Positions 4,270-22,748 of a DNA stretch of 22,748 nucleotides are shown here, in pieces (position 1 is the first letter of the stretch; the number at the start of each line of letters is the position of its first letter). The DNA is from a virus. Lineage: Duplodnaviria; Heunggongvirae; Uroviricota; Caudoviricetes. A program made the translations under genes and the position numbers. A model generated the notes under the pieces. The model had not been told where the DNA came from. It did no database searches and saw only the letters and a list, made by a program, of their open reading frames with translations. The stretch lies in IMG/VR virus record IMGVR_UViG_2534682096_000014; one strand, 5' to 3'.

Positions 4270-4673
4270 AGCTCTGGCCCACGCTGGGTGTCGCTTTCCT
4301 TCTGATTGCCGCATGGGGAACATCCATGCGTCTGTCGTGGTCGCTGGGCCGGGAGAACGCCAGAAACGAAGCGCAGGCCAGCGCCCTGAAAAGTACCGTC
4401 GACACCCTGAATATCATCAGCACCGGGGTACAGGATATGCAGCAGGTGCTGGCGCAACTCCGCGTGGAAAATCAACAGAGAAATCAGGACGGAGAGGCCA
4501 GACGTGAACAGCTACGCAACGATATTGCAAAAGATGAATGCGCCCACGCTTTGCCTGACGCTCGTTTTACTGACAGGTTGCGCAGGCACGCAGAACGCGC
4601 CACTGCCAGCGCCGTCAGTCCGGCTTATACCGCAGACGCTGACCATACCGGTAACGCCTCCCCCCTTCCCTGA
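4266..4673 (+). CDS. lysB: i-spanin (LysB/Rz-like)
   Basis: ATG 4266 overlaps the endolysin stop; N-terminal TM helix LWPTLGVAFLLIAAWG followed by a charged, coiled-coil-like region. Confidence 0.6.
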   Translation: MKLWPTLGVAFLLIAAWGTSMRLSWSLGRENARNEAQASALKSTVDTLNIISTGVQDMQQVLAQLRVENQQRNQDGEARREQLRNDIAKDECAHALPDARFTDRLRRHAERATASAVSPAYTADADHTGNASPLP

Positions 4674-8255: not shown

Positions 8256-10481
8256 ATGAGTACCACAACACGAAAATTTAAAACCGTTATCACCGATACG
8301 GGTGCAAAAAAATTAGCTCAGGCAGCCGCGCCAGATGGTAAGCCTGTCCGCCTGACTCATATGGCCGTGGGCGACGGTGGCGGCACGTTGCCCACACCAG
8401 ACAGTAAGCAGACCCGTCTGGTGCATGAGGTGTGGCGACATACTGTTAATCGCGTCATCCTGGACGCAACACATCAGAACCGCATTATTGCGGAGCTAGT
8501 TATTCCTCCTGAAACGGGCGGATTCTGGATCCGGGAAATTGGTGTATTTGATGAGCACGGCGATTTAATCGCGGTGGGAAATACTGCCGAAAGTTACAAG
8601 CCAGCCGTTGCCGAAGGGTCCGGTCGTGCACAAACATTTCGCACCATTCTGACCGTATCCAGCACTGCCACCGTGGCGCTTACCGTGGATAACACCATGG
8701 TGATGGCCACAGTGGATTACGTGGATGACAAACTGAAAGAGCATGAACAGTCACGACGTCACCCGGACGCCTCGCTGACCGCAAAAGGCTTTGTTCAACT
8801 CAGTAGCGCCACTAACAGCGTGTCTGAAACGCAGGCTGCAACGCCGAAAGCAGTAAAGGCCGCGTATGATCTTGCTAACGGTAAATATACTGCGCAGGAT
8901 GCCAGCACGACGCGAAAAGGCCTTGTCCAGCTCAGTAGCGCCACCAACAGCACGTCTGAAACGCAGGCTGCAACGCCGAAAGCAGTAAAGGCCGCGTATG
9001 ACCTTGCTAACGCAAAATATACCGCTCAGGACGCTACGACGGCACAAAAAGGGATAGTCCAGCTCAGTAGTGCCACCAACAGCACGTCTGAAACACTGGC
9101 CGCGACATCGAAAGCGGTTAAGGCGGTAATGGATGAAACGAACAAGAAAGCGCCCTTAAACAGTCCTGCGTTGACCGGAACGCCAACAACGCCAACTGCG
9201 CGACAGGGAACGAATAATACCCAAATCGCAAGCACGGCTTTCGTTATGGCTGCGATTGCCGCCCTTGTAGATTCGTCACCTGACGCACTGAATACGCTGA
9301 ACGAGTTAGCGGCGGCGCTGGGAAACGACCCGAATTTTGCGACCACCATGACTAACGCGCTTGCGGGTAAGCAACCGAAAGATGCCACCCTGACGGCGCT
9401 GGCCGGGCTTGCTACTGCGGCAGACAAGTTTCCGTATTTTACGGGGAATGATGTCGCCAGCCTGGCAACCCTGACAAAAGTCGGGCGGGATATTCTTGCG
9501 AAATCGACCGTTGCTGCCGTTATCGAATACCTCGGTTTACAAGAAACGGTAAATCAGGCTTCTGGCGCATTACAGAAAAACCAGAACGGCGCAGATATTC
9601 CAGGAAAAGATACCTTCACAAAAAATATTGGTGCATGTCGCGCTTTTCACAGTGCTATTAGTACAGGGGCAGGGAACTGGACAACGGCACAATTGATTGA
9701 ATGGCTGGATTCTCAAGGGGCATTCAATCACCCATACTGGATGTGCAAATGTTCATGGTCATACGGCAATAATAAAATTATTACCGATACTGGCTGTGGA
9801 ACTATTCATCTTGCAGGTTGCGTTATTGAGGTTATGGGTAATAAAGGTGCCATGACCATCCGTGTAACCACCCCGAGCACTTCCAGCGGTGGCGGAACTA
9901 CTAATGCACAATTTACTTATATAAACCACGGTGGAGATTATGCGCCAGGCTGGCGGCGTGACTACAGTACCAAAAATCAGCAGCCTGCATTTGCTTTAGG
10001 GCAGACAGGAAGCACTGTTGGAAATGACAAAGCTGTTGGATGGAACTCAAATAGCGGCGTTTATAATGCGACTATTAGTGGAGCGTCAACATTGATTCTT
10101 CACTTTAATATGAATGCGGGGAGTTGCCCGGCGGTTCAGTTCCGTGTGAATTATAAGAACGGCGGTATTTATTATCGTTCAGCGCGAGATGGTTATGGAT
10201 TTGAGGCTGACTGGTCAGAGTTTTATACCACAACACGCAAGCCATCAGCAGGAGATGTTGGTGCATATACCAAAGCCGAATCAGATTCTCGCTATGTACG
10301 AGATATTCGCCTGGGCACACGTGTTGTTCAGACTATGCAAAAAGGCGTGATGTATGAGAAATCAGGTCATGCAATTACGGGGCTTGGCATTGTCGGTGAA
10401 GTTGATGGCGATGATCCGGCAGTATTCAGACCAATACAAAAGTTAATTAACGGAACATGGTATAACGTATCGCAGGTATAA
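8256..10481 (+). CDS. H: tail fiber protein H (expressed variant in the current orientation)
   Basis: 741 aa; conserved P2 H-type N-terminus, three tandem 44-aa shaft repeats, variable distal part, conserved extreme C-terminus; the 3' portion lies inside the invertible segment. Confidence 0.85.
8787..9182 (+). repeat. tandem coding repeat, 3 x 132 bp (44-aa tail-fiber repeat, third copy diverged)
   Basis: [44 protein letters not shown] repeated with period 132 bp (copies begin at 8787, 8919, 9051). Confidence 0.8.
9520..9601. repeat. left inverted repeat of the invertible segment, including a gix/hix-like crossover site (ttatcgaatacctcggtttacaagaa, 9520..9545)
   Basis: About 71 bp (9531..9601) matches the reverse complement of 12502..12572 at 69/71 positions; the outer 26 bp resembles the recombination sites of Gin/Hin/Cin/Pin systems. 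Confidence 0.7.
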
Positions 10482-10483
10482 TC

Positions 10484-11017
10484 ATGCAGCATTTAAAAAA
10501 CATTGTCGCAGGTAATCCAAAAACCGTTGAACAATATCAGCTAACAAAGAATTTTAATGTTATCTGGTTATGGTCCGAAGACGGAAAAAACTGGTATGAG
10601 GAAGTGAAAAACTTTCAGGAAGATACAATAAAACTGGCTTACACTGTAGAGGGAATAATTGTTGCTATGGATAAAGATGTATCGGCAATTAATCCAGAAG
10701 GTTTAAGTGTCGTTGAGTTGCCTGATATTACAGCAAATCGCCGGGCTGATATTTCGGGGAAATGGATGTTCAAAGATGGCGTAGTGATAAAGCGAACTTA
10801 TACCGAGGAAGAGCAGAGGCAACAAGCGGAAAATGAAAAGCAAAGCCTGCTACAGCTCGTCAGGGATAAAACACAGCTATGGGACTCACAGCTACGGCTG
10901 GGTATCATTTCCAACGAGAATAAACAAAAATTAACCGAGTGGATGCTCTATGCGCAGAAGGTCGAATCCACAGACACCTCCAGCCTGCCAGTAACGTTTC
11001 CAGAACAACCAGAATGA
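10484..11017 (+). CDS. G: tail fiber assembly chaperone (gpG / Tfa), expressed copy
   Basis: 177 aa immediately after H; N-terminus [20 protein letters not shown]; paralog of the - strand ORF at 11046..11573. Confidence 0.8.
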
Positions 11018-11020
11018 AAC

Positions 11021-11040
11021 AAGGCCCGCTATCGGGCCTT
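11021..11040. terminator. hairpin between the convergent Tfa genes (aaggcccg ctat cgggcctt, then T-rich on the + strand)
   Basis: 8-bp GC-rich stem followed by aatttttatt; sits at the centre of the invertible segment. Confidence 0.4.
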
Positions 11041-11045
11041 AATTT

Positions 11046-11573
11046 TTATTCAGGCTTTTGTGGCCATTCAGGATTTGCCGTATCCACACGGCTGACCAGA
11101 ACACTATAGCGTTCCCATGACTCCAGTCGTGCGCGTTCCTCATCCGTCGCCATATTCAGCCTGACAGCGCGTTCCAGTGGCTGAATAACGTTTTCTGCTT
11201 CGGAAAGTAACGCGGCCTTTTGTGATTCGGCCTGTTGTTGTTGCTCGTCTGCCGTATAAATCCGTTTAACCACAGCTCCGTCCTTAAACATCCACTTACC
11301 GGAATCATCAGCACGACGATTAGCTGTAATATCAGGAACCTCAACGACGCTATAACCTTCAGGGTTAAGCGTGGAGGCATCTTTGGTGATGGCGACAATA
11401 ATATTATTTGCATCGTAAACAATCTTTATTGTGTCTGGCTGAAAGTTTTTCACTTCCTCATACCAGTTTTTTCCGTCTTCGGACCATAACCAGATAACAT
11501 CAAAATTCTTTGTTAGCTGATATTGTTCAACGGTTTTTGGATTACCTGACTTAATGTTTTTTAAATGCTGCAT
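11046..11573 (-). CDS. alternative tail fiber assembly chaperone (Tfa'), silent cassette partner
   Basis: 175 aa; first ~45 residues nearly identical to G, C-terminal third diverged; convergent with G. Confidence 0.8.
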
Positions 11574-11576
11574 AAT

Positions 11577-12566
11577 TTACACCTGCGCAACGTTATACCA
11601 TGTGCCATTGATGTATTTTTGTATTGGTCTGAATACTGCTGGGTCATCACCATCAACTTCACCGACAATACCAAGCCCCGTGATTACATGGCCTGATTTT
11701 TCATACATCACGCCTTTTTGCATGGTCTGAACAACACGTGTGCCAAGTCTGACATCTCTCACATAGCGGGAATCAAAGTTACCGTAATCCGAGGGGTTAA
11801 CACGCCCTGTAATATTTATGGTTTTATTACTTTGAATGCTGCCGGAGACAAAGCGCATAACATGGACGTTATTAGCATAAACATCCAGATACCCGTCGCC
11901 ATTTTGTTTAAATCCCGTGTCATTATCACCCAAAACAATCGAGTTACCGCCAAGAGCACTGGATGTTCCGATACCCAATGCACCATTCAATTGACCGCCA
12001 GATAATGACAACGCCCCAACCTCAGCAGCAGTCGGTTTAATGTGCGAACTGTAAATTACATATACAGTTCCATCTGTCAGGCCTGTTGGTTTATTCGCTG
12101 TATAAGTTGGTGATGTATGAATTTGTACAGTTGCATCCTTTGTATAATCCCACTGGATATTAACACCTGTGGCGTAATTACCTATTTCTACATAAATGTC
12201 ATAGGTATCACCGGATGTATTCACCCATGCAAAATTAGTAAATCCAACCGAGGTCCGTCGCCATAATGCACCAGTAAGACCTTTTGGATTTCCATTTCCC
12301 GCACGAAGAACAAGTTCAGATATACCAGCCTGCATAGGGGAGTTAACATTATATCCAGCACCACCAATCAGACTTATGTAAACCACGGAACTGGCTTGTG
12401 GCATTGTTACAGTTGCCAGTTTGAACCATCCAGCACCACCACTAAAAGACATGGTTGTTGAATTTGTTGTGCCGATATTACGCAGGAATAGTTTTTTATC
12501 GGGAATATCTGCGCCGTTCTGGTTTTTCTGTAATGCGCCAGAAGCCTGATTTACCGTTTCCTGCAA
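11577..12566 (-). CDS. alternative tail fiber C-terminal cassette (H'), promoterless in this orientation
   Basis: Begins inside the right inverted repeat with the same [21 protein letters not shown] junction as H residues ~428-448 (the apparent start is a TTG continuing an upstream reading frame); conserved C-terminal ~60 aa, different middle region. Confidence 0.75.
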   Translation of the reverse strand: MQETVNQASGALQKNQNGADIPDKKLFLRNIGTTNSTTMSFSGGAGWFKLATVTMPQASSVVYISLIGGAGYNVNSPMQAGISELVLRAGNGNPKGLTGALWRRTSVGFTNFAWVNTSGDTYDIYVEIGNYATGVNIQWDYTKDATVQIHTSPTYTANKPTGLTDGTVYVIYSSHIKPTAAEVGALSLSGGQLNGALGIGTSSALGGNSIVLGDNDTGFKQNGDGYLDVYANNVHVMRFVSGSIQSNKTINITGRVNPSDYGNFDSRYVRDVRLGTRVVQTMQKGVMYEKSGHVITGLGIVGEVDGDDPAVFRPIQKYINGTWYNVAQV

Positions 12567-12583
12567 ACCGAGGTTTTAGATAA
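12502..12583. repeat. right inverted repeat of the invertible segment, including a gix/hix-like crossover site (ttcctgcaaaccgaggttttagataa, 12558..12583)
   Basis: Reverse complement matches 9531..9601; the outer site is a near-palindromic 26-mer. Confidence 0.7.
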
Positions 12584-12637
12584 TGGCTGTTTCTGACCTG
12601 CATGGCATGATTTACGCTTTTGGACGGGAGATTCAGC

Positions 12638-13225
12638 GTGCTGATTGGCTATGTAAGGGTATCAACAAATGACCAGAATACAGACCTGCAACGAAACGCT
12701 CTTGTTTGTGCAGGATGTGAACAAATATTTGAAGATAAATTAAGCGGGACAAAGACAGACCGACCGGGATTAAAACGCGCTTTAAAGCGTCTTCAAAAAG
12801 GTGACACGCTGGTTGTCTGGAAACTGGATCGCCTCGGGCGAAGCATGAAACATCTGATTTCTCTCGTCGGGGAACTACGGGAGCGAGGGATTAATTTTCG
12901 CAGTCTGACCGACAGCATAGATACATCTTCTCCAATGGGGCGTTTTTTCTTCCACGTGATGGGTGCCCTGGCTGAAATGGAACGTGAATTAATTGTTGAA
13001 CGTACACTGGCCGGACTGGCGGCAGCGCGCGCACGGGGGCGCACAGGCGGACGTCGACCGAAGCTGACAAAAGAACAGCATGAGCAAATAGCAAGGCTGA
13101 TTAAAAACGGTCACGACAGAAAACAACTGGCAATAATTTACGGCATTGGTACATCGACGATTTATCGTTACCACCCCGCAGGAGAATCAAGCGGAACAAT
13201 AGAGAAGAGTCAGAAAACAAAATAA
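12638..13225 (+). CDS. DNA invertase, serine recombinase of the Pin/Gin/Hin/Cin family
   Basis: VLIGYVRVSTNDQNTDLQRNAL... with the catalytic-Ser motif and a C-terminal HTH; GTG 12638 preceded by GGAG; the ORF track starts at TTG 12620. Immediately adjacent to the invertible segment. Confidence 0.85.
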   Translation: MLIGYVRVSTNDQNTDLQRNALVCAGCEQIFEDKLSGTKTDRPGLKRALKRLQKGDTLVVWKLDRLGRSMKHLISLVGELRERGINFRSLTDSIDTSSPMGRFFFHVMGALAEMERELIVERTLAGLAAARARGRTGGRRPKLTKEQHEQIARLIKNGHDRKQLAIIYGIGTSTIYRYHPAGESSGTIEKSQKTK

Positions 13226-13252
13226 CCGCTAATCTGGCCATTAGCGGTTTTT
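13226..13252. terminator. hairpin + T-run after the invertase stop, possibly bidirectional (also downstream of U on the - strand)
   Basis: ccgctaat ctggcc attagcgg followed by ttttt. Confidence 0.5.
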
Positions 13253-13260
13253 GTGTTAAA

Positions 13261-13749
13261 TCAGAACAGCCCTTTAACTGAACTGGCCGCGCTGTTAAGA
13301 GATGATGTCACCTTATCTTTGAAGCCGGACAGCATATCGCTGAATGATGAGGATTGCAGGCGTTCCCGCAAATCCTCATCACAGCGTTCAAGGGTCAGTG
13401 AAAATTCTATCTTTTTCGCCTTACCGTAGCGATCAAACTCGGAACGGGTCGTATTCGTTTCAGTCAGCACATACATGCCGTAAATCTGCCCGACACTATC
13501 AATCAGAGGCCAGGGGCGTCCTGTATACGCCTGCGTGGTCAGCAGCGACAGCGACACTTCGCCACCTGTAATTTCAGGATAAAGCACACCAGAAAGAACG
13601 ATGCGATCATCACCTGCACCGATATACTGCCAGCTTGCTGAACGGTTAACGCGTTCATTTTTCACATGCCGCCAGCTTTTGTTTTGCTGTAACTGCTGAT
13701 GCGGCAACGTGCGCAGCTCAAAAACAAACATGCCGTAGATCATCATCAT
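13261..13749 (-). CDS. U: tail protein U (gpU-like)
   Basis: MMMIYGMFVFELRTLP...VLSGVLYPE..GG resembles P2 gpU; start chosen at the ATG 8 nt after GAGGAG; ORF track start is 13755. Confidence 0.8.
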   Translation of the reverse strand: MMMIYGMFVFELRTLPHQQLQQNKSWRHVKNERVNRSASWQYIGAGDDRIVLSGVLYPEITGGEVSLSLLTTQAYTGRPWPLIDSVGQIYGMYVLTETNTTRSEFDRYGKAKKIEFSLTLERCDEDLRERLQSSSFSDMLSGFKDKVTSSLNSAASSVKGLF

Positions 13750-13761
13750 GGCCATGACTCC

Positions 13762-16605
13762 TCAATCTTTATCGTAAAAACTGCCACGCCCGGCACGGGC
13801 ACGCCGTTCCATTTCTGCCCTGACCATTTCACCGACCAGTTTCGCCAGTTCGCGGGGATTCTGCGTAACAACGTTATGCAGATGAACATGAATTTCACCA
13901 CCAAATCCGGAGGCAACAGGCTCCCGGTTACGGGAAGTTACAGGAACTGATGCCACTGGAGATCGTATGGCCTCCGCCACCGGGCGGGAGCTGGCCGCAA
14001 CAACAGGGACCAGCGCCGGAGGCAGCGGAGCCGGGACCACGGGGGTGATATTAATTGCGGGGGCAGGCTTACTGACCTGCGCAATCTTCCGCTCCTGCCA
14101 CTCCCCACGAACAGCAAGTGCGCGGGGCAGGTTCTTAAAGACAATATCGCCGGGGCCAATGCGTTTTTTCGTCTCATCAACCAGCTTACCTGTGTTATCA
14201 GCAATTTTGCTGAGTCTGCGTAGCGTCCCGGTATTGCTGTCTGTGAGCGGTTTGTTGTCTTTGGGTTTATCACCTCCGGTGCCATTGCCATTTTCCACAG
14301 GCTTCGGCGGATTGATTTTCGCCAGGTCCCCCTGAAGTAAGGCAACCTTGTCCTGAAGAATGGCCGCACGCTGTGCATCTTCGATTTTCTTGCGCGCCCT
14401 TTCCGCTTCATCCGGAAGGACGCCAAGTTTTTCAAGTATCCACGCCAGCGTATCCAGTAGCATTTTTGCAGGTGTCAGAACAAGTTGTAACGCACCGCCA
14501 AGAACGTTACCGAATATCTCGCCAGCACTGGTACATTTATCCAGCGTTTCCTTGCTGGACTCCATCGGTGACAACAGCGATTTAAACCAGTTAAACACCT
14601 GGCTGATCCCGCTTCCGATTGCGTCAAAAACAGGACCAAACCGTTCAAAGGTTTCGCGCAACGGGGTCAGCCTTTCCATAATCCCGCTGAACACCCCGGC
14701 AAAAAATGCCCTGATGGGATCCCAGTATTTCCAGATAAGAACGGCAGCTCCGGCAAGCGCAGCCACGATAAGACCAACCGGACTGAACAGCGCTCCGATA
14801 GCGCCTCCCAGCAAAGAAACGGAACCCGTCAGCATTCCCCACAGCGCAGGCAACACCCTGACGACATTCATTGACCGGGTAAGAATGTCAAAACCAAGAC
14901 GCAGGGTGGCCAGCTTTCCGTAAAGCACCCCAATAACCAGCGACAACGAGCCAATCGTTGCAGTCATTGCCAGCAACGCACCGCCTGCTATCAGTAGCTG
15001 GCGTGTCAGTACCGGATGGGCCTGCGCCAGCGAGGTGATTTTTTCAAGCACCCGCGTGAGCCACTGCGTGACAGAACGCAGCGGACCGTCAACCAGATCA
15101 CTGATGCGAATACGAAGACCTTCCCATGCGCTGTCGAGATTTTTCAGGTCCCCATCAAGATTATCGGCCATTACTTTTGCAACGCGATCGGCCTCTCCCT
15201 TTGCCCCCTGCAATTCTCTGGTCAGTTTTTGCAGCTCTCCTGAACCAGCCGCCGCAACAAGCGTCTGCAAACCAACGAACGCCTCTTCTCCGGCGATGTC
15301 CTTGAAGAAGGAAACCTGGTCCACCTGTCCGTATTTTTGTGTCGCCTTATAGAGATCAAGCAGCACATCCTCCATCGGGCGCATTTTGCCTCTGGCGTCA
15401 GCAACTGACACCCCCAGCTCTTTCAGCGCATCAGCCGCAGCTTTTGGCGGTGATGCTAGGCGGGACAGACTTGCGCGCATGGCCGTACCAGCATCGCTTC
15501 CGCGAAGACCATTATTGGCAAGCATCCCGGCCATGGCCGTCGCTTCTTCAAGACTGATACCAAGTTTTGCGGCAACCGGACCGGTATACTTCATGGTTTC
15601 GCCCAGCGCGCGTAAATCAGTATTGGTCCGGGTGAATGCTGCTGTCAGCGTATCGCCAACCCGGTCCATTTGATCGGCTGTCAGGTTGAACTGTGTGAGG
15701 ATATTGGAGCCTATATCAGCCGTCTCGCCGAGTTCGACGCCACCTGCCAGCGCCATATTAAGAACACCGGGCAATGCGGCCTGAATGGCCTGCGGAGTAA
15801 AACCAGCCATTGCCAGAAAGCTCTGCCCACTGGCGGCATCACTCGCAGTAAACTGTGTTTCAGAGCCAAGTTTTAACGCCTGCTCACGCAGCGCCTTAAA
15901 CTGCGGGCTGTTTTTGTCGATTCGCGTCAGTGCCTGAACGCGGGACATCTCTTTGCCGAACCCGATCGCAGGCTGCAAAAAACGCCCGGCAGCATAGCCG
16001 CCAGCCGCTGCCGCACCAATTGCCAGCGCACCACCTGTTTTCAGTTTTCCCGCGTTTTCCTGCGCGCGCGAATACCGCTCACGCGCCCGCGTTACACGCG
16101 CAAGCGCCTGCCGTTCGCGTTCAAGCTGGTTGTTGTACTGTTCGGTGCGTCTGATGGCCTGCTGGATGGTGTTATCGCTGCCTGTCAGGGAAATGCCGTG
16201 GCGTTTCAGCTCTCCGCCAAGCTCCCGCATTTTCTGAATTTCCCGTGTGCGCGATTCATTCAGGCGTTCAAGCCGGGTGCTTAACTGCTGCATCAGCTTT
16301 TGTTGTTTTTCGCTGAGCACTGTACCCGTGCGTTGTAACTGATTAAGGGCGTTAAGCTGGCGTCGTGCTTTCACGATGCCCGCATCCGCTTTACTGACAG
16401 CGTCACGGGCGCGCTCAAATGATCGCGCCTGACGCTCGAGATTTTTGATCGCCCCCTGCGTTCGCTGGATGGAGTCACCAAACTGCCCCATCAGGCGGCG
16501 GGCGTTTTCGGCAGGCCGGGTCAGCCTGTCAACGGCGCTGAAAGCGACCCGGATATCAAGAGTCTTCATTGTCTGCATTCCCGCTGCGAAGTGCCGCCCG
16601 CTCAC
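13762..16605 (-). CDS. T: tail tape measure protein (gpT-like)
   Basis: 947 aa, Ala/Gly-rich with coiled-coil N-terminal part and hydrophobic central segments; lies between E/E' and U. Confidence 0.85.
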   Translation of the reverse strand: MSGRHFAAGMQTMKTLDIRVAFSAVDRLTRPAENARRLMGQFGDSIQRTQGAIKNLERQARSFERARDAVSKADAGIVKARRQLNALNQLQRTGTVLSEKQQKLMQQLSTRLERLNESRTREIQKMRELGGELKRHGISLTGSDNTIQQAIRRTEQYNNQLERERQALARVTRARERYSRAQENAGKLKTGGALAIGAAAAGGYAAGRFLQPAIGFGKEMSRVQALTRIDKNSPQFKALREQALKLGSETQFTASDAASGQSFLAMAGFTPQAIQAALPGVLNMALAGGVELGETADIGSNILTQFNLTADQMDRVGDTLTAAFTRTNTDLRALGETMKYTGPVAAKLGISLEEATAMAGMLANNGLRGSDAGTAMRASLSRLASPPKAAADALKELGVSVADARGKMRPMEDVLLDLYKATQKYGQVDQVSFFKDIAGEEAFVGLQTLVAAAGSGELQKLTRELQGAKGEADRVAKVMADNLDGDLKNLDSAWEGLRIRISDLVDGPLRSVTQWLTRVLEKITSLAQAHPVLTRQLLIAGGALLAMTATIGSLSLVIGVLYGKLATLRLGFDILTRSMNVVRVLPALWGMLTGSVSLLGGAIGALFSPVGLIVAALAGAAVLIWKYWDPIRAFFAGVFSGIMERLTPLRETFERFGPVFDAIGSGISQVFNWFKSLLSPMESSKETLDKCTSAGEIFGNVLGGALQLVLTPAKMLLDTLAWILEKLGVLPDEAERARKKIEDAQRAAILQDKVALLQGDLAKINPPKPVENGNGTGGDKPKDNKPLTDSNTGTLRRLSKIADNTGKLVDETKKRIGPGDIVFKNLPRALAVRGEWQERKIAQVSKPAPAINITPVVPAPLPPALVPVVAASSRPVAEAIRSPVASVPVTSRNREPVASGFGGEIHVHLHNVVTQNPRELAKLVGEMVRAEMERRARAGRGSFYDKD

Positions 16606-17085
16606 GCCAGCTAACCACTTCGCCGGGCGTCATCATGAAGATTTCGGCGGGCGACCAGTTAAAAATGGCGGCAATATCCGCCACAAAGTCTTCTATGTGC
16701 TCAAAGCACACAACCGTGATCAGGCTTCCGTCGCCTGTTCGTTCTTCCCGCCAGAGTCCGCACCGCTCAAAAAATTTACGGCAACCACACATAACTGAAT
16801 AAAGTCACGGGATGCCATTTTTTTGATCGTCACTTCATCCAGTCGCGGTGATGTCACGCGTGACAGCAGCGTAAACATGGATTCCGCTTTCAGATTCAGC
16901 ACATCAGACAGCGACAAATCTCGCAGAGATCCAGCCTGCTCAATAGCCCCGGTGATCTCCACATACGTGATTTTTTCGCCGCCTCGCTCAATTGGTTGGG
17001 TAAGTTTTACGCCACGCTCACTGGTTTCTTTCACAGTGTCAGTAACTACCGTGTTTTCGGTATCGATGTTTTTCGTCTCTTTCAT
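16556..17085 (-). CDS. tail assembly chaperone E+E', product of a -1 programmed translational frameshift
   Basis: After slipping at the heptamer the -1 frame reads FFERCGLWREERTGDGSL..., which is the C-terminal part of ORF 16556..16792; this is the conserved G/GT-type arrangement upstream of the tape measure gene. Confidence 0.6.
16720..17085 (-). CDS. E: tail assembly chaperone E (gpE-like), zero-frame product
   Basis: 121 aa ORF upstream of T; contains the TTTTTTG slippery heptamer near its 3' end. Confidence 0.7.
   Translation of the reverse strand: MKETKNIDTENTVVTDTVKETSERGVKLTQPIERGGEKITYVEITGAIEQAGSLRDLSLSDVLNLKAESMFTLLSRVTSPRLDEVTIKKMASRDFIQLCVVAVNFLSGADSGGKNEQATEA
16768..16774 (-). 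other. slippery heptamer TTTTTTG (seen as caaaaaa on the + strand) for the E/E' -1 frameshift
   Basis: Direct reading of the minus strand: gta aat ttt ttg agc. Confidence 0.6.
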
Positions 17086-17139
17086 CAGGAAACTCCTTTC
17101 AGTCAGAGGCGACGCACTGCGCCGCCTGCATATTACTTA

Positions 17140-17652
17140 TCAGCCAAGCCCGAGCGCGGAACGGATGCGATCGGGCACAATGTCCTTGCCGTCCTTCCGG
17201 TAAATGAAGTTCAGCAGGTCAATCTCCCACAACGGGCGATCGTTAACACTCAGCTTGTAGTAGGTGTTTTTAATGGCGTAAGTGTGTGATGTGGCTTCGC
17301 CCTGTTTGGCTTCCCCCATATCAATTTCCGTCACACGTCCGCGCATTTCGACTTCATACAGGTCGCTTTCTGCATCGGTGTAGTATTCACCCGCAAAACG
17401 CAGCAGCGTGCCGTCAATCGTGCCGCCATACTTAAGGAACAGCTCACGAACTGCGCCCCCCATGACAAAGCTCGCATCAAGCGCGGAGTCGTCCAGACCG
17501 AGATCAATACTTACCGCACCCATCATGCCACCACCCCGGTAGCTGTCGGTTTTGCGCGTCAGCTTAGGCAGAGTGACGGACGTCACCTTACCCACTTCGT
17601 TTTCACCATCCACAAACAGCGTAAAAAAGCGAAGATGTTTTGGTACAGCCAT
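17140..17652 (-). CDS. FII: tail tube protein (gpFII-like)
   Basis: 170 aa, position and size as P2 FII; follows FI. Confidence 0.85.
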   Translation of the reverse strand: MAVPKHLRFFTLFVDGENEVGKVTSVTLPKLTRKTDSYRGGGMMGAVSIDLGLDDSALDASFVMGGAVRELFLKYGGTIDGTLLRFAGEYYTDAESDLYEVEMRGRVTEIDMGEAKQGEATSHTYAIKNTYYKLSVNDRPLWEIDLLNFIYRKDGKDIVPDRIRSALGLG

Positions 17653-18836
17653 CAGGCACCTCCCAGCACCGCAAATGCGGGACCAAAGAATTCATCAGTA
17701 AACGACTGGTAAAGCTCCATGTCTTCCAGCGGGGGAACAGGCGTATATTTGTAGCGAATACGCACGCGCCCCTGACGTAAATTCGTGGTGCCGTTATCCA
17801 CCACGTCATACCAGCACGACGCCCCAATCAGTTTCCCGGCAGTAACCAGTGAATCCAGTTTTGCCCTGATGGCACTGATAACATCTTTCACGTTCGCAGG
17901 CGTCAGTGGACTGTCGATGGTTTCAAACTGCGCTTCCGCAATTGAATCAGCCAGCACCTGTGCGGTTCGGGTATACACCTCAAAGATGTAGGCGTTCGTT
18001 TCCGGTGTGCGGTTGCCCCAGAAGCGGAACCCATTGCGACGAATAATGGTCGTGATTTCTTTGTTGTTGAGGCTGTTGGCATCACTGTCTTCGGCCTGCA
18101 ACGACCAGAACACATGCCTGGACATCCCCAGCACATTTTTAACCGGAACGTTGGACAGCGATTTGTGCCAGCCCTGCTCATGGTCAATGTACGCACGAAG
18201 GCCGCACGCATAGGCAGGCGCGGGGAACGTTTCGTTTTTGCCACTTTTCGGGTTGTAGGCGATGAAGTCCGGCCATAAGAGCATCACCTCACGTTCGTTG
18301 AATTTCTGGCGGTAGGTAATCGCCTCAGCCATCGTGTTACAGCCGTGACATGAGGCATACACAAACGCGCGCAGTTTACCCGCAATCACGCACAGGGATT
18401 TTGTTACCGCCTCCGTGTCCAGCTCCGGCGCGGCCAGAATACGCGGACGGTATCCGATGCTTTCATCCTGCTCTGCAACAAGCAGCGCATACATCCCCGT
18501 ATAGCTGCCGTCATCCTCAGAACCACCGATAACCAGTTGATCCTGCGTCTTTCCGTCTTCTTCTTTGTGTTCAGCCACGCGAACGACGATCACCTTTGTG
18601 CTCACCTGGTCTGCGATGGCCTTAAGCGCACGATAAAGCGTCCCCGTTGTCCCGCATTTTCCCAGCACGTCATTGACGCGGGTCAGCAGTGTGGGCTTGT
18701 TCAGCGGGAACAGCTTCGCATCCGCATCATCCGCCGTTGCCACGATACCGATAACACTGGAATCAACATCATTAATCGCTGTTACCAGGTCGGTACTTTC
18801 CGTAACACGGGCACCATGAAAACGAGTTTCACTCAT
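17652..18836 (-). CDS. FI: contractile tail sheath protein (gpFI-like)
   Basis: 394 aa, size as P2 FI; its stop overlaps the FII start. Confidence 0.85.
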   Translation of the reverse strand: MSETRFHGARVTESTDLVTAINDVDSSVIGIVATADDADAKLFPLNKPTLLTRVNDVLGKCGTTGTLYRALKAIADQVSTKVIVVRVAEHKEEDGKTQDQLVIGGSEDDGSYTGMYALLVAEQDESIGYRPRILAAPELDTEAVTKSLCVIAGKLRAFVYASCHGCNTMAEAITYRQKFNEREVMLLWPDFIAYNPKSGKNETFPAPAYACGLRAYIDHEQGWHKSLSNVPVKNVLGMSRHVFWSLQAEDSDANSLNNKEITTIIRRNGFRFWGNRTPETNAYIFEVYTRTAQVLADSIAEAQFETIDSPLTPANVKDVISAIRAKLDSLVTAGKLIGASCWYDVVDNGTTNLRQGRVRIRYKYTPVPPLEDMELYQSFTDEFFGPAFAVLGGA

Positions 18837-20093: not shown

Positions 20094-20287
20094 ACAACTT
20101 AGATGCATTAGCCCTGACATTTGTTAACGCGCCTACAGCAAGAATCATAACCAATCTGACAGCCTACCAAGTGTCAAAATCAGAAGTACCTTACATTAGA
20201 ATATGTTAATTTGTAGCAAACAAATTTACACACAAATGATTACTGCTGAAATAGCGCCCATAAATGCCATGTCAGAGGATCCATGTT

Positions 20288-20941
20288 ATGAATATGCAAC
20301 CAGCAGCCACAGTTGCTGCAGTCTGCCTTGCTGCATATTTTGCTTTACGAAATGAACGTAAAAAGAAAGCACTTGAGATTAGAACAACTCAACTAGATCG
20401 AATATCTGAGCTAGTAAACCGAGCATCTACCAATTTGATGCAATATACAGGTAGCCTTGCCTCTATACTGGAAGCGCGCGCCAAAGAAGATTATCGACCG
20501 AACAAAAAATTTGACATTAATGTAATTAGCAAATGGAAAGATTGCCTCGATGAGAGTGAGGTCTGGGCGATTGATATACAGCAACTCAGAGCATGTCAGC
20601 ACAGCCTGGAGTTTCATCGTGAAAAAGAATGGGCTGAATGGAAACAAATAATTCCACCATTACTTGATAAAATTGATCAATTCTTTCTCATATCTAAGCC
20701 AGGGCAACCTGTTACGTTTATAAATAGCCAAAACAAAACAGCTGATGAACTACTTGATTTCTCAAGATATTTGAGAGCTCAAACAGCAGAAATTGAATCA
20801 GTACGTCGGCAGTTACTTTCCCAAATGAGAAAAGAATTCAGCGAGTTGACTAGCTTTAGACCTATCACAATATTTAGCCTATTTAAATCAATAAAGAAAA
20901 ATGTCATGCAATTTTTCTGTATCGGCGCTCTTAAAAATTGA
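20288..20941 (+). CDS. hypothetical membrane-anchored protein, AT-rich cargo (moron) gene, function unknown
   Basis: ORF 20264..20941; ATG 20288 lies 8 nt after AGAGGA; N-terminal hydrophobic segment AATVAAVCLAAYFAL; clearly AT-richer than flanking phage genes; AT-rich upstream intergenic region and downstream hairpin. Confidence 0.5.
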   Translation: MNMQPAATVAAVCLAAYFALRNERKKKALEIRTTQLDRISELVNRASTNLMQYTGSLASILEARAKEDYRPNKKFDINVISKWKDCLDESEVWAIDIQQLRACQHSLEFHREKEWAEWKQIIPPLLDKIDQFFLISKPGQPVTFINSQNKTADELLDFSRYLRAQTAEIESVRRQLLSQMRKEFSELTSFRPITIFSLFKSIKKNVMQFFCIGALKN

Positions 20942-21090: not shown

Positions 21091-21351
21091 ATGTTTCGTT
21101 GTCCGCTTTGTGGCGCATCTGCCCGTATCCGCACCAGTCGTTCGGAAAATGATTCAGATACCGTGCGGAAAAAATATTACCAGTGTAACAACCTGGAATG
21201 CGGCGTATGCTTCTCAACACTGGAGGCTTTCCATAAATTCACATCGAAACACGCCCCAGGCGTTCACTCTTCAGAGGGCATCCCGTGGAATGAGCTGCCA
21301 GCTTCGCACAGGGGAAACAACCAAATGAGTTTGCCCTTACCTCAGAATTAA
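21091..21351 (+). CDS. ogr: Ogr/Delta-family zinc-finger late transcription activator
   Basis: MFRCPLCG...YYQCNNLEC has the CxxC-N22-CxxxxC arrangement of P2 Ogr; GGGAGG RBS; 86 aa. Confidence 0.8.
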   Translation: MFRCPLCGASARIRTSRSENDSDTVRKKYYQCNNLECGVCFSTLEAFHKFTSKHAPGVHSSEGIPWNELPASHRGNNQMSLPLPQN

Positions 21352-21411: not shown

Positions 21412-21624
21412 ATGGCTGGAGGGAATACCCGAAGGCCAGATGTGGAAAGGCCCCGGAAAACATTTCTGTTTAACCGAGGCCCTGACCATCTAACCTTAGC
21501 AAGTGATAGGTTAGCGCCTCCCCAAAAAAGGAGCAAGCGCTATGTCGCAAAAATCGCTTATGGCCATCACGTTCTGCGTGACGGTAATCCTCATCATCTG
21601 GATGCTGCACGGTTCGCTGTGTGA
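21412..21624 (+). CDS. mok-like overlapping reading frame of the hok-family locus
   Basis: 70-aa ORF overlapping the 5' two-thirds of the hok-like ORF in another frame, as in hok/mok/sok loci. Confidence 0.35.
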   Translation: MAGGNTRRPDVERPRKTFLFNRGPDHLTLASDRLAPPQKRSKRYVAKIAYGHHVLRDGNPHHLDAARFAV

Positions 21625-21682
21625 AATACGGATGAGCTTCTGGGGAGCGGAGTTTGCGGCGTTCTTACAGTGTAAGCAGTAA
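21542..21682 (+). CDS. Hok/Gef-family small membrane toxin (type I toxin-antitoxin)
   Basis: 46 aa MSQKSLMAITFCVTVILIIWMLHGSLCEIR...; single TM helix followed by the SLCEIR motif shared by Hok/Gef/RelF; AGGAG RBS 8 nt upstream; below the 60-aa cutoff of the ORF track. Confidence 0.6.
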   Translation: MSQKSLMAITFCVTVILIIWMLHGSLCEIRMSFWGAEFAAFLQCKQ

Positions 21683-22155: not shown

Positions 22156-22439
22156 ACCGATACACTCTATTACTAACCAATCATAACCCACATCATAAAA
22201 TCGAGATGTGGAGTACAACACCTTTAACAAGAAGGTGTCATAACGATAATATGCCGTGCAATTCATCAAAAAAAAGATCTATATCAAAGAGATAGAGCTC
22301 TTATCAGTGCTGCAGACATCGGCATTCGAGGCAGCAGAAAAACAGTAAATCTGACGATTTTGCCTTTTCTCAGGATGTTGTCAGATTAAAAAAGACAGAT
22401 TAGCGCAGGTACCTTTTGGTGGATGGCAGGAGGAAAAAT

Positions 22440-22545
22440 GAAGTCGAGTGGAAAAATCCCAGAAAAATTTTTGTTTAACCGAGGTCCTAGTTCACTATGC
22501 GAAATACGGAGGAGCTGCAGGAGAATTCGGCTTCATCCTTAGAGT
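22440..22545 (+). pseudogene. decayed second hok-family locus (leader region plus a C-terminal CEIR.. remnant, internal deletion)
   Basis: 22408..22495 is about 75% similar to the hok leader at 21408..21500 (shared gtttaaccgagg(c/t)cct); gaaatacgga matches the hok CEIR-coding region but the N-terminal half is missing. Confidence 0.35.
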
Positions 22546-22623
22546 TTAAACAGCACGTGCACTACTATTGTTTCTGCATATCGCCACACCATCGCCACTC
22601 CACCGCCATTGCACAAAATACAA

Positions 22624-22651
22624 ATACAAAAAAACCACCCGAAGGTGGTTT
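22624..22651 (-). terminator. rho-independent terminator downstream of the tRNA-Leu gene
   Basis: Minus strand reads aaaccacc ttcg ggtggttt followed by tttttgtatttg. Confidence 0.5.
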
Positions 22652-22695
22652 CACGACACTGCTTATTGCTTTGATTTTATTCTTATCTTTCCCAT

Positions 22696-22748
22696 GGTAC
22701 CCGGAGCGGGACTTGAACCCGCACAGCGCGAACGCCGAGGGATTTTAA
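22696..22748 (-). tRNA. leuZ: tRNA-Leu(UAA), 3' portion only (gene continues beyond the window end)
   Basis: Minus strand reads ...TTAAAATCCCTCGGCGTTCGCGCTGTGCGGGTTCAAGTCCCGCTCCGGGTACCA: anticodon loop with UAA, long variable arm, T-arm and ACCA end; matches my recollection of E. coli leuZ. Confidence 0.8.

Follow-up and report, generated by a model that had tools for sequence, protein, structure and literature searches.

The analysed stretch of 22,748 nucleotides, hereafter the window, is part of a prophage. In its central portion the gene of the tail fibre H is followed by two opposed cassettes, each with a fibre C-terminus and a tail-fibre assembly chaperone, which lie between two short recombination sites and next to a DNA invertase gene. 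The features are as follows (strand is given for the coding features):

8256-9533, plus strand: constant N-terminal part of H (Sc equivalent), in the reading frame 8256-10481, transcribed from outside the invertible segment
9516-9608: left arm of an inverted repeat, complementary to 12495-12587 at 85 of 93 positions, encoding the shared fibre junction
9520-9545: left recombination site (gixL-like), within the H reading frame, central TC at 9532-9533
9534-10481, plus strand: variable fibre C-terminus A, in the presently expressed orientation, Pfam gp37_C match
10484-11017, plus strand: tail-fibre assembly chaperone A, 177 aa, in the presently expressed orientation, Pfam Caudo_TAP (E=1e-33)
11020-11041: bidirectional hairpin terminator between the convergent cassettes, with a GC-rich stem and, on either strand, a run of T after it
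11046-11573, minus strand: tail-fibre assembly chaperone B, 175 aa, silent in the window orientation, Pfam Caudo_TAP (E=5e-38)
11577-12569, minus strand: variable fibre C-terminus B, silent in the window orientation and promoterless until inverted
12558-12583: right recombination site (gixR-like), with GA at its centre (12570-12571)
12638-13225, plus strand: serine DNA invertase of the Gin family (195 aa, first codon GTG) with the Pfam domains Resolvase (E=1e-50) and HTH_7
12656-12727: putative recombinational enhancer (sis, Fis-binding), identified from homology, at the 5' end of the invertase gene
13224-13249: bidirectional hairpin terminator that separates the invertase gene from gpU, which is convergent with it

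The two 26-bp sites are in inverted orientation relative to each other, and the central TC/GA is common to both of them and to the gix site of phage Mu. The left site, TTATCGAATACC TC GGTTTACAAGAA, differs from Mu gix (TTATCCAAAACC TC GGTTTACAGGAA, taken from AF083977) by three mismatches, one of which is in the outer half-site, and the right site, TTCCTGCAAACC GA GGTTTTAGATAA (reverse complement TTATCTAAAACC TC GGTTTGCAGGAA), differs by two. The H coding sequence limits how far the outer half-site on the left can vary. At up to three mismatches these were the only matches in the whole window, where none is expected (100 shuffles), and at up to eight mismatches the whole window held no further gix-like sites beyond chance-level matches. 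A shufflon or a third site was rejected on the basis of these two scans, and the presence of only two sites in the window makes the switch a two-state one. The core of the repeat (9529-9601) is identical at 71 of 73 positions and includes a run of 59 consecutive identical bp (9543-9601), and the same 23-residue junction peptide is encoded by both fibre variants. A second, imperfect inverted repeat of about 560 bp lies inside the segment (10284-10840 and 11217-11774, 80-87% identity). The initial annotation, which proposed a complete invertible host-range switch, had described outer 26-bp sites resembling gix and hix, repeats identical at 69 of 71 positions and a neighboring invertase of the Pin/Gin family, and all of these, together with the opposed cassettes and their chaperones, are present.

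The invertase shares 82% identity with Mu Gin overall, with a single substitution in the first 119 residues and a far more diverged C-terminal DNA-binding domain; it is 73% identical to P1 Cin and 93% to the invertase of phage 503458, and matches the sequences of the Gin crystal structures PDB 4m6f and 3uj3 at E=1e-100. The nucleophile Ser9 is present and aligns with S9 of Gin. Residues that are specific to the Fis/enhancer-dependent invertases have been described in Hin, namely Q151, R154 and L155 and the basic positions 47, 48 and 51 (PMC3798978). The former correspond here to Q150, R153 and L154, invariant with Gin and Cin, and the latter to K46, R47 and K50, where the basic character is kept. 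The enhancer interval aligns to the annotated enhancer of P1 cin (nt 19-90 of cin, AF234172) and is 100% identical in bases to Mu gin. Translation most likely starts at GTG 12638, which corrects the TTG 12620 listed earlier, judging by a GGGAGA ribosome-binding site upstream, as for gin in Mu. The invertase may act on the two predicted sites, with an efficiency that is uncertain because its DNA-binding domain is so much diverged from that of Gin.

Both cassettes have counterparts in Mu. Fibre tip A shows 75% identity to Mu S' (G(-) type), and 152 of the 177 residues of chaperone A (86%) are identical to Mu U', while chaperone B is identical to Mu U in 166 of 175 residues (95%). Tip B had no match in Pfam; its receptor-binding part shows 31% identity to Mu S and is 100% identical to that of the Mu-like Yersinia phages vB_YpM_5 and vB_YpM_6. 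The receptor-binding parts of tips A and B are 41% identical to each other, and their last ~66 aa are nearly alike, which is not so in Mu. The constant part of H carries Pfam Phage_tail_fib and three Phage_fiber_2 repeats. The terminator at 11020-11041, recognized from its stem and T-runs, would stop transcription in either orientation of the segment. The 329-aa cassette of the initial annotation is an alternative C-terminus whose reading frame, 11577-12566, is without a start codon of its own, and the TTG inside the repeat is an artefact of ORF calling.

This layout is in accordance with the well-known G segment of Mu, also found in D108 and SfMu: a constant fibre N-terminus, gix, Sv-U, convergent U'-Sv', gix, and an invertase gene with an enhancer at its 5' end. 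The segment is 84-88% identical in nucleotide sequence to the G segments of these phages over about half of the query. It differs from Mu in its carrier, which is P2-like rather than transposable and Mu-like and has a constant fibre part similar to P2 H, and in tip B, whose receptor-binding part is not related to that of Mu S. The Y. pestis phages vB_YpM_5 and vB_YpM_6 show 98.6% nucleotide identity from inside the left repeat to about codon 119 of the invertase; their backbone is Mu-like, and the similarity stops where the catalytic domain of the invertase joins its DNA-binding domain. P1 Cin, e14 Pin, Salmonella Hin and Fels-2 Fin belong to the same family of Fis/enhancer-dependent invertases, and the P1 C segment, the e14 P segment and Fels-2 follow the same logic of tail-fibre switching. 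P1 differs in having cin on the other side and a segment of 4.2 kb, and Salmonella Hin in flipping a promoter instead of coding cassettes.

Judged from its genes, the element is P2-like but is not P2 proper. P2 (NC_001895) has H-G-fun(Z)-FI-FII-E-T-U-D on one strand and no invertase, which agrees with the statement of the initial annotation that P2 lacks such a switch; in the window the invertible segment and the invertase follow H, and the FI-U block runs along the other strand. The same switch layout is annotated in the Xuanwuvirus phages (Peduoviridae) P88, 503458 and 520873. These and Citrobacter phage phiSM share the order I, H, chaperone, inverted chaperone, inverted fibre fragment and DNA invertase, followed, on the other strand, by gpU and the tape-measure gene, with fibre-tip cassettes that differ in sequence from those found here. 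Gene order around our switch is that of 503458, with 91% nucleotide identity over 64% of the 4.3-kb query. Inversion is not mentioned in the paper on P88 (PMC5285337); in P2-like prophages of EPEC it was demonstrated by sequencing and PCR (PMC4272514), and in the P2-like prophage Fels-2, which has an invertible fibre segment, it was inferred (PMC7953296). Prophages of the same lineage as the window, with 98.4% identity over 20 kb and an identical or nearly identical segment, are found in E. coli AH20J067, SCU-111 and FDN-11, all three with the segment in the opposite orientation. The AH20J067 prophage adjoins ihfA/pheT, rather than tRNA-Leu. Scanning the window for Rfam families and tRNA genes gave no matches.

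When the segment was flipped in silico at the central dinucleotide, the constant part of H was joined in frame to tip B in a fibre of 756 aa, with chaperone B following 3 nt past its stop codon, which is the fusion that the initial annotation had foreseen. The fibre is thus 741 or 756 aa long depending on orientation, with residues 1-449 in common and the matching chaperone, A or B, 3 nt downstream. The flipped sequence of 4301 nt matches E. coli AH20J067 in a single piece at 4299 positions, the constant part of H is the same in that strain, and its prophage is colinear with the window only after the flip. Over the 2995 nt of the segment that were compared, the window, L007 (window orientation) and AH20J067 (flipped) show no differences, and L009 (window orientation) has two differences from SCU-111 (flipped), so that there are two segment haplotypes, each found in both orientations. 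AH20J067 was uninformative for mapping the crossover, as both inner half-sites are identical, and the pair L009/SCU-111 resolved it. In this pair an A/G polymorphism at site position 20 travels with the segment, and positions 6 and 9 keep to the flanking DNA. This one polymorphism, in a single pair of haplotypes, maps the exchange to ACCTCGGTTT (9529-9538), which surrounds the central TC. Of the 5426 complete E. coli genomes, 2364 have a match to the region or to some part of it, and at a coverage of at least 80% eight records are in the window orientation and 16 are flipped. This evidence for inversion is historical, as it comes from related public genomes.

We consider that the locus is very probably a two-state switch of phage host range, operated by Gin-type site-specific inversion in a P2-like (Peduoviridae, Xuanwuvirus-like) E. 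coli prophage. Dimers of the invertase would bind both gix-like sites and, with host Fis on the enhancer, form an invertasome, in which both sites would be cut at the central TC/GA dinucleotide, one half rotated by 180 degrees, and the ends religated with 9534-12569 flipped. The promoter of the late operon and the constant 426-aa N-terminus of H both sit outside the segment, so that orientation would decide which pair of products is made: tip A (Mu S'-like) with chaperone A (Mu U'-like) in the window orientation, tip B with chaperone B (Mu U-like) in the flipped one. A population of lysogens would then release particles of two receptor specificities. Different host ranges for the two orientations are suggested by the 41% identity between the tips in their receptor-binding parts and by relatives that use the LPS core, such as vB_YpM_5 and vB_YpM_6, whose receptor is the rough LPS core (PMC10434027). 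The receptors here are most likely two different LPS-core structures. Switches of this family depend on host Fis and on negative supercoiling; the dependence on Fis here, the receptors, and the present activity and rate of the switch in this strain are inferred.

Homologous recombination by RecA between the 93-bp repeats, or between the internal repeats of about 560 bp, could also have produced the two orientations without involvement of the invertase. The run of 59 identical bp and the 80-87% identity of the internal repeat speak for such an origin, but repeats identical over 59 bp are poor substrates for RecA, the exchange in L009/SCU-111 falls in 10 bp at the central dinucleotide and not in the long identical run further in, and a full Gin-type machinery adjoins the segment, which makes this origin extremely improbable. 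It is also very unlikely that the switch is a frozen relic, with all parts intact, the invertase unexpressed or inactive on diverged sites, and the prophage locked with tip A. A simple scan upstream of the invertase gave no sigma-70-like promoter, the left site is three mismatches away from gix, and in the close relative FDN-11 the invertase is truncated, which indicates that the switch is subject to decay in this lineage. However, the invertase reading frame is intact, with the identical protein (WP_000905060.1) annotated in AH20J067, SCU-111 and TUM14668, segments identical or two positions apart occur in both orientations, and the region upstream of the invertase is closely similar to that upstream of Mu gin.

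Another reading is that the switch mainly serves the host lysogen, with the alternative fibre masking receptors and so blocking superinfecting phages. Gin-family invertases act on one another's sites, which can be counted in its favour. A recent report on PinQ and StfE2 in the cryptic prophage e14 gives a precedent, in which inversion yields a receptor-masking fibre that blocks superinfecting phages (PMC12529663). Against this, the fibre genes lie in the late operon of an intact-looking P2-like prophage, with genes for capsid, lysis, baseplate, sheath, tube and tape measure present, so that they should not be expressed in the lysogen. PADLOC, run on the invertase and two unannotated ORFs near the end of the prophage, gave no match, and nothing in the sequence calls for a function of this kind, so we regard it as hardly probable that the lysogen is the main beneficiary. 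A broader role in the lysogen beyond host range, with the invertase acting in trans on segments of other prophages or with a receptor-masking fibre, or, as a milder proposal, a cassette that is portable between Mu-like and P2-like phages, likewise has only a slight probability. The portable unit as proposed consists of the sites, the cassettes and the catalytic half of the invertase, and corresponds to the stretch shared at 98.6% identity with the Mu-like Yersinia phages.

A site-specific host-range switch of this type is already known, as the G and C segments of Mu and P1, and was described previously in P2-like prophages; its mechanism, enzyme family, phage context and biological logic are all established. 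In the PGAP annotation the silent cassette is labelled a pseudogene 'missing N-terminus' and the invertase a 'recombinase family protein', which are routine annotation errors. Comparison of natural variants is a cheap means of showing flipping in nature and the position of the exchange, and needs no read data. The finding matters little beyond annotation, where it helps to predict that this prophage would release two types of particles.

The switch region is made up of the following features (positions are those of the window):

8256-10481, plus strand: tail-fibre gene of 741 aa in the ORF listing, with a P2-type N-terminal domain by Pfam
8783-9178: three tandem fibre repeats of 44 aa (132 nt) in the constant part of H (Pfam Phage_fiber_2)
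9520-9545: left 26-bp site at the outer end of the repeat, TTATCGAATACC TC GGTTTACAAGAA
10484-11017, plus strand: Caudo_TAP chaperone, 177 aa, directly after the 741-aa fibre gene
11020-11041: bidirectional hairpin terminator between both chaperone genes
11046-11573, minus strand: Caudo_TAP chaperone, 175 aa, convergent with the fibre and the 177-aa chaperone
11577-12566, minus strand: open frame of 329 codons, also convergent with these two genes
12558-12583: right 26-bp site at the outer end of the repeat, reverse complement TTATCTAAAACC TC GGTTTGCAGGAA
13224-13249: bidirectional hairpin terminator after the invertase gene

Relative to the reference copy, the three repeats in H have identities of 100%, 86% and 61%, and analogous repeated elements are annotated in S in the P1 record. 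Repeat finding detected a 93-bp inverted repeat (arms 9516-9608 and 12495-12587, 85/93 complementary; core 9529-9601, 71/73) which brackets all four fibre-tip and chaperone units. The 26-bp sites differ from the Mu gix sites taken from AF083977 (TTATCCAAAACC TC GGTTTACAGGAA) by three bases on the left and two on the right, and the central dinucleotide is kept. A pattern search allowing up to 3 mismatches returned exactly two sites in the 22.7 kb, compared with 0 in 100 shuffles, and at up to 8 mismatches further gix-like sites in the window were only chance-level noise. A shufflon is ruled out since neither threshold gave a third site above chance level in the window; the switch is therefore two-state.

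The gene adjoining the segment carries Resolvase and HTH_7 domains (Pfam) and likely starts at GTG 12638, preceded by GGGAGA as in Mu gin, which gives a product of 195 aa. This invertase shows 93% identity with its counterpart in the P2-like phage 503458, 82% with Mu Gin and 73% with P1 Cin; over aa 1-119 a single position differs from Gin, the nucleophile Ser9 is present, and the best solved-structure matches are the Gin entries 4m6f and 3uj3 (E about 1e-100). Residues specific to Fis/enhancer-dependent invertases are Hin Q151, R154 and L155 and the basic Hin residues 47, 48 and 51 (PMC3798978). Counterparts of the former are conserved as Q150, R153 and L154, and those of the latter are K46, R47 and K50. 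The Cin enhancer is annotated at nt 19-90 of cin in the P1 GenBank record, and window 12656-12727, which aligns to it, is base-for-base identical to Mu gin and represents a putative enhancer. Inverted repeats at the fibre junction, gix-like outer sites and a Pin/Gin-family invertase beside the segment, all proposed in the initial annotation, are borne out by these comparisons.

When 9534-12569 was inverted in silico, with cuts at the central dinucleotides, the product was an uninterrupted 756-aa fibre composed of the constant N-terminus, the shared GLQETVNQ... junction and tip B, with the 175-aa chaperone beginning 3 nt past its stop codon. The flip thus joins the constant H N-terminus to the second cassette and brings the alternative chaperone into the expressed position, as had been predicted. 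The 329-aa alternative cassette does fuse in frame, and it is therefore a cassette without promoter or start of its own; its TTG start did not hold up, being an ORF-calling artefact within the repeat.

Both orientations are found in public genomes. Of 5,426 complete E. coli genomes, none matched the native 4.3 kb (9000-13300) near-identically over its full length (best 93%); 2,364 of them matched at least part of it. The in-silico flipped version aligned to E. coli AH20J067 over 4299/4301 nt in one alignment, and the window is colinear with the AH20J067 prophage over 20 kb (98.4%) only after the flip. With all parts found and the flipped form present in the AH20J067 prophage, the claim of a complete invertible fibre/chaperone switch stands. 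At least 24 public contigs encode the exact 741-aa fusion of the window. Of the complete E. coli genome records with 80% coverage or more, 8 match in the window orientation and 16 in the flipped one. A 2995-nt stretch of the segment was compared across seven genomes in one alignment, with the flipped ones reverse-complemented. Two haplotypes result, separated by 27 differences. One, with 0 differences within it, comprises the window and L007, both in the window orientation, and the flipped AH20J067; the other, with 2 differences, comprises L009 (window orientation) and SCU-111 (flipped). As each haplotype is present in both orientations, the alignment implies that the segment has inverted repeatedly in nature.

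Inversion could also arise by homologous recombination within the repeat, which contains a 59-bp perfectly identical stretch further in than the site centre, but a different polymorphism pattern would then be expected than the one seen in the L009/SCU-111 pair. There, an A/G polymorphism at site position 20 moves with the segment and those at positions 6 and 9 remain with the flanks, so that the exchange is confined to the 10 bp ACCTCGGTTT around the central TC, as a Gin-type crossover predicts.

The PGAP annotation of five RefSeq E. coli genomes (L002, L014-L017) calls the silent fibre cassette a pseudogene ('incomplete; missing N-terminus') and gives the invertase only the name 'recombinase family protein'. 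The close relative FDN-11 carries a truncated invertase, and its copy of the switch is therefore probably locked.

In relation to Mu, tip A, the one expressed in the window, is 75% identical to S', chaperone A 86% to U' and chaperone B 95% to U, but tip B is merely 31% identical to S. Tip B matches at 100% identity a fibre fragment of vB_YpM_5 and vB_YpM_6, Mu-like phages of Yersinia pestis whose receptor is the rough LPS core (PMC10434027). Nucleotide identity of these phages to the window is 98.6% from inside the left repeat to about invertase codon 119 (vB_YpM_5, MT374853.1, 1-3405 against window 9589-12993), and in vB_YpM_5 the similarity stops at the junction of the catalytic and DNA-binding domains. 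That a Mu-like phage of Y. pestis and a P2-like E. coli prophage are so alike here points to the whole switch having been exchanged recently between unrelated families of myoviruses. Tips A and B are near-identical over their last ~66 residues and the two chaperones over their N-terminal two-thirds (first ~120 codons), which is absent in Mu and suggests gene conversion between the cassettes. These stretches form an internal imperfect inverted repeat (10284-10840 and 11217-11774, 80-87% identity), at which a second inversion, dependent on RecA, might also take place.

Around the switch the genes are of P2 type and include those for baseplate J, I and W, gpU, tape measure, sheath, tube, gpD and ogr. 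P2 itself (NC_001895) has H-G-fun(Z)-FI...D all on one strand and no invertase, in agreement with the earlier statement that it lacks such a switch, while Xuanwuvirus, e.g. 503458, is annotated with the layout of the window: H, cassettes, invertase and inverted U-T-E-FII-FI. Similar DNA to the switch region is present in P88, 520873 and Citrobacter phiSM. U, T (tape measure), E, FII and FI (13261-18836, minus strand) lie opposite to H and D, with the invertase exactly at one border of this block; in P2 FI-FII-E-T-U-D is on the H strand. The opposite-strand block, shared by the window, 503458 and AH20J067, looks like a genus-level rearrangement. Between gpD and ogr lies a 225-aa ORF (20264-20941, plus strand) with no match in Pfam and PADLOC searches; AH20J067 has here a truncated gpD and an unrelated 1155-nt hypothetical gene instead, and the position looks like a variable cargo slot. 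Further on are:

21091-21351: ogr-like zinc-finger gene
21542-21682: Hok/Gef-type toxin ORF
22423-22748: degenerate second hok-like fragment

Comparison with 510016 and EC130, two near-identical E. coli genomes, places the end of the window within or next to a tRNA-Leu gene, probably the attachment site; because the window is cut there, ARAGORN found no tRNA in it.

Whole-genome sequencing revealed inversion in two P2-like prophages of EPEC E2348/69, and coexisting variants of a three-repeat locus were also PCR-validated (PMC4272514). Inversion of the fibre segment beside the pin/fin gene is described in Fels-2 (PMC7953296). From all these results we consider it very likely that the element is a functional Gin/Cin-type invertible host-range switch of a P2-like prophage that may be active in the window strain; a Gin/Cin-type switch in such a prophage is textbook and already known.
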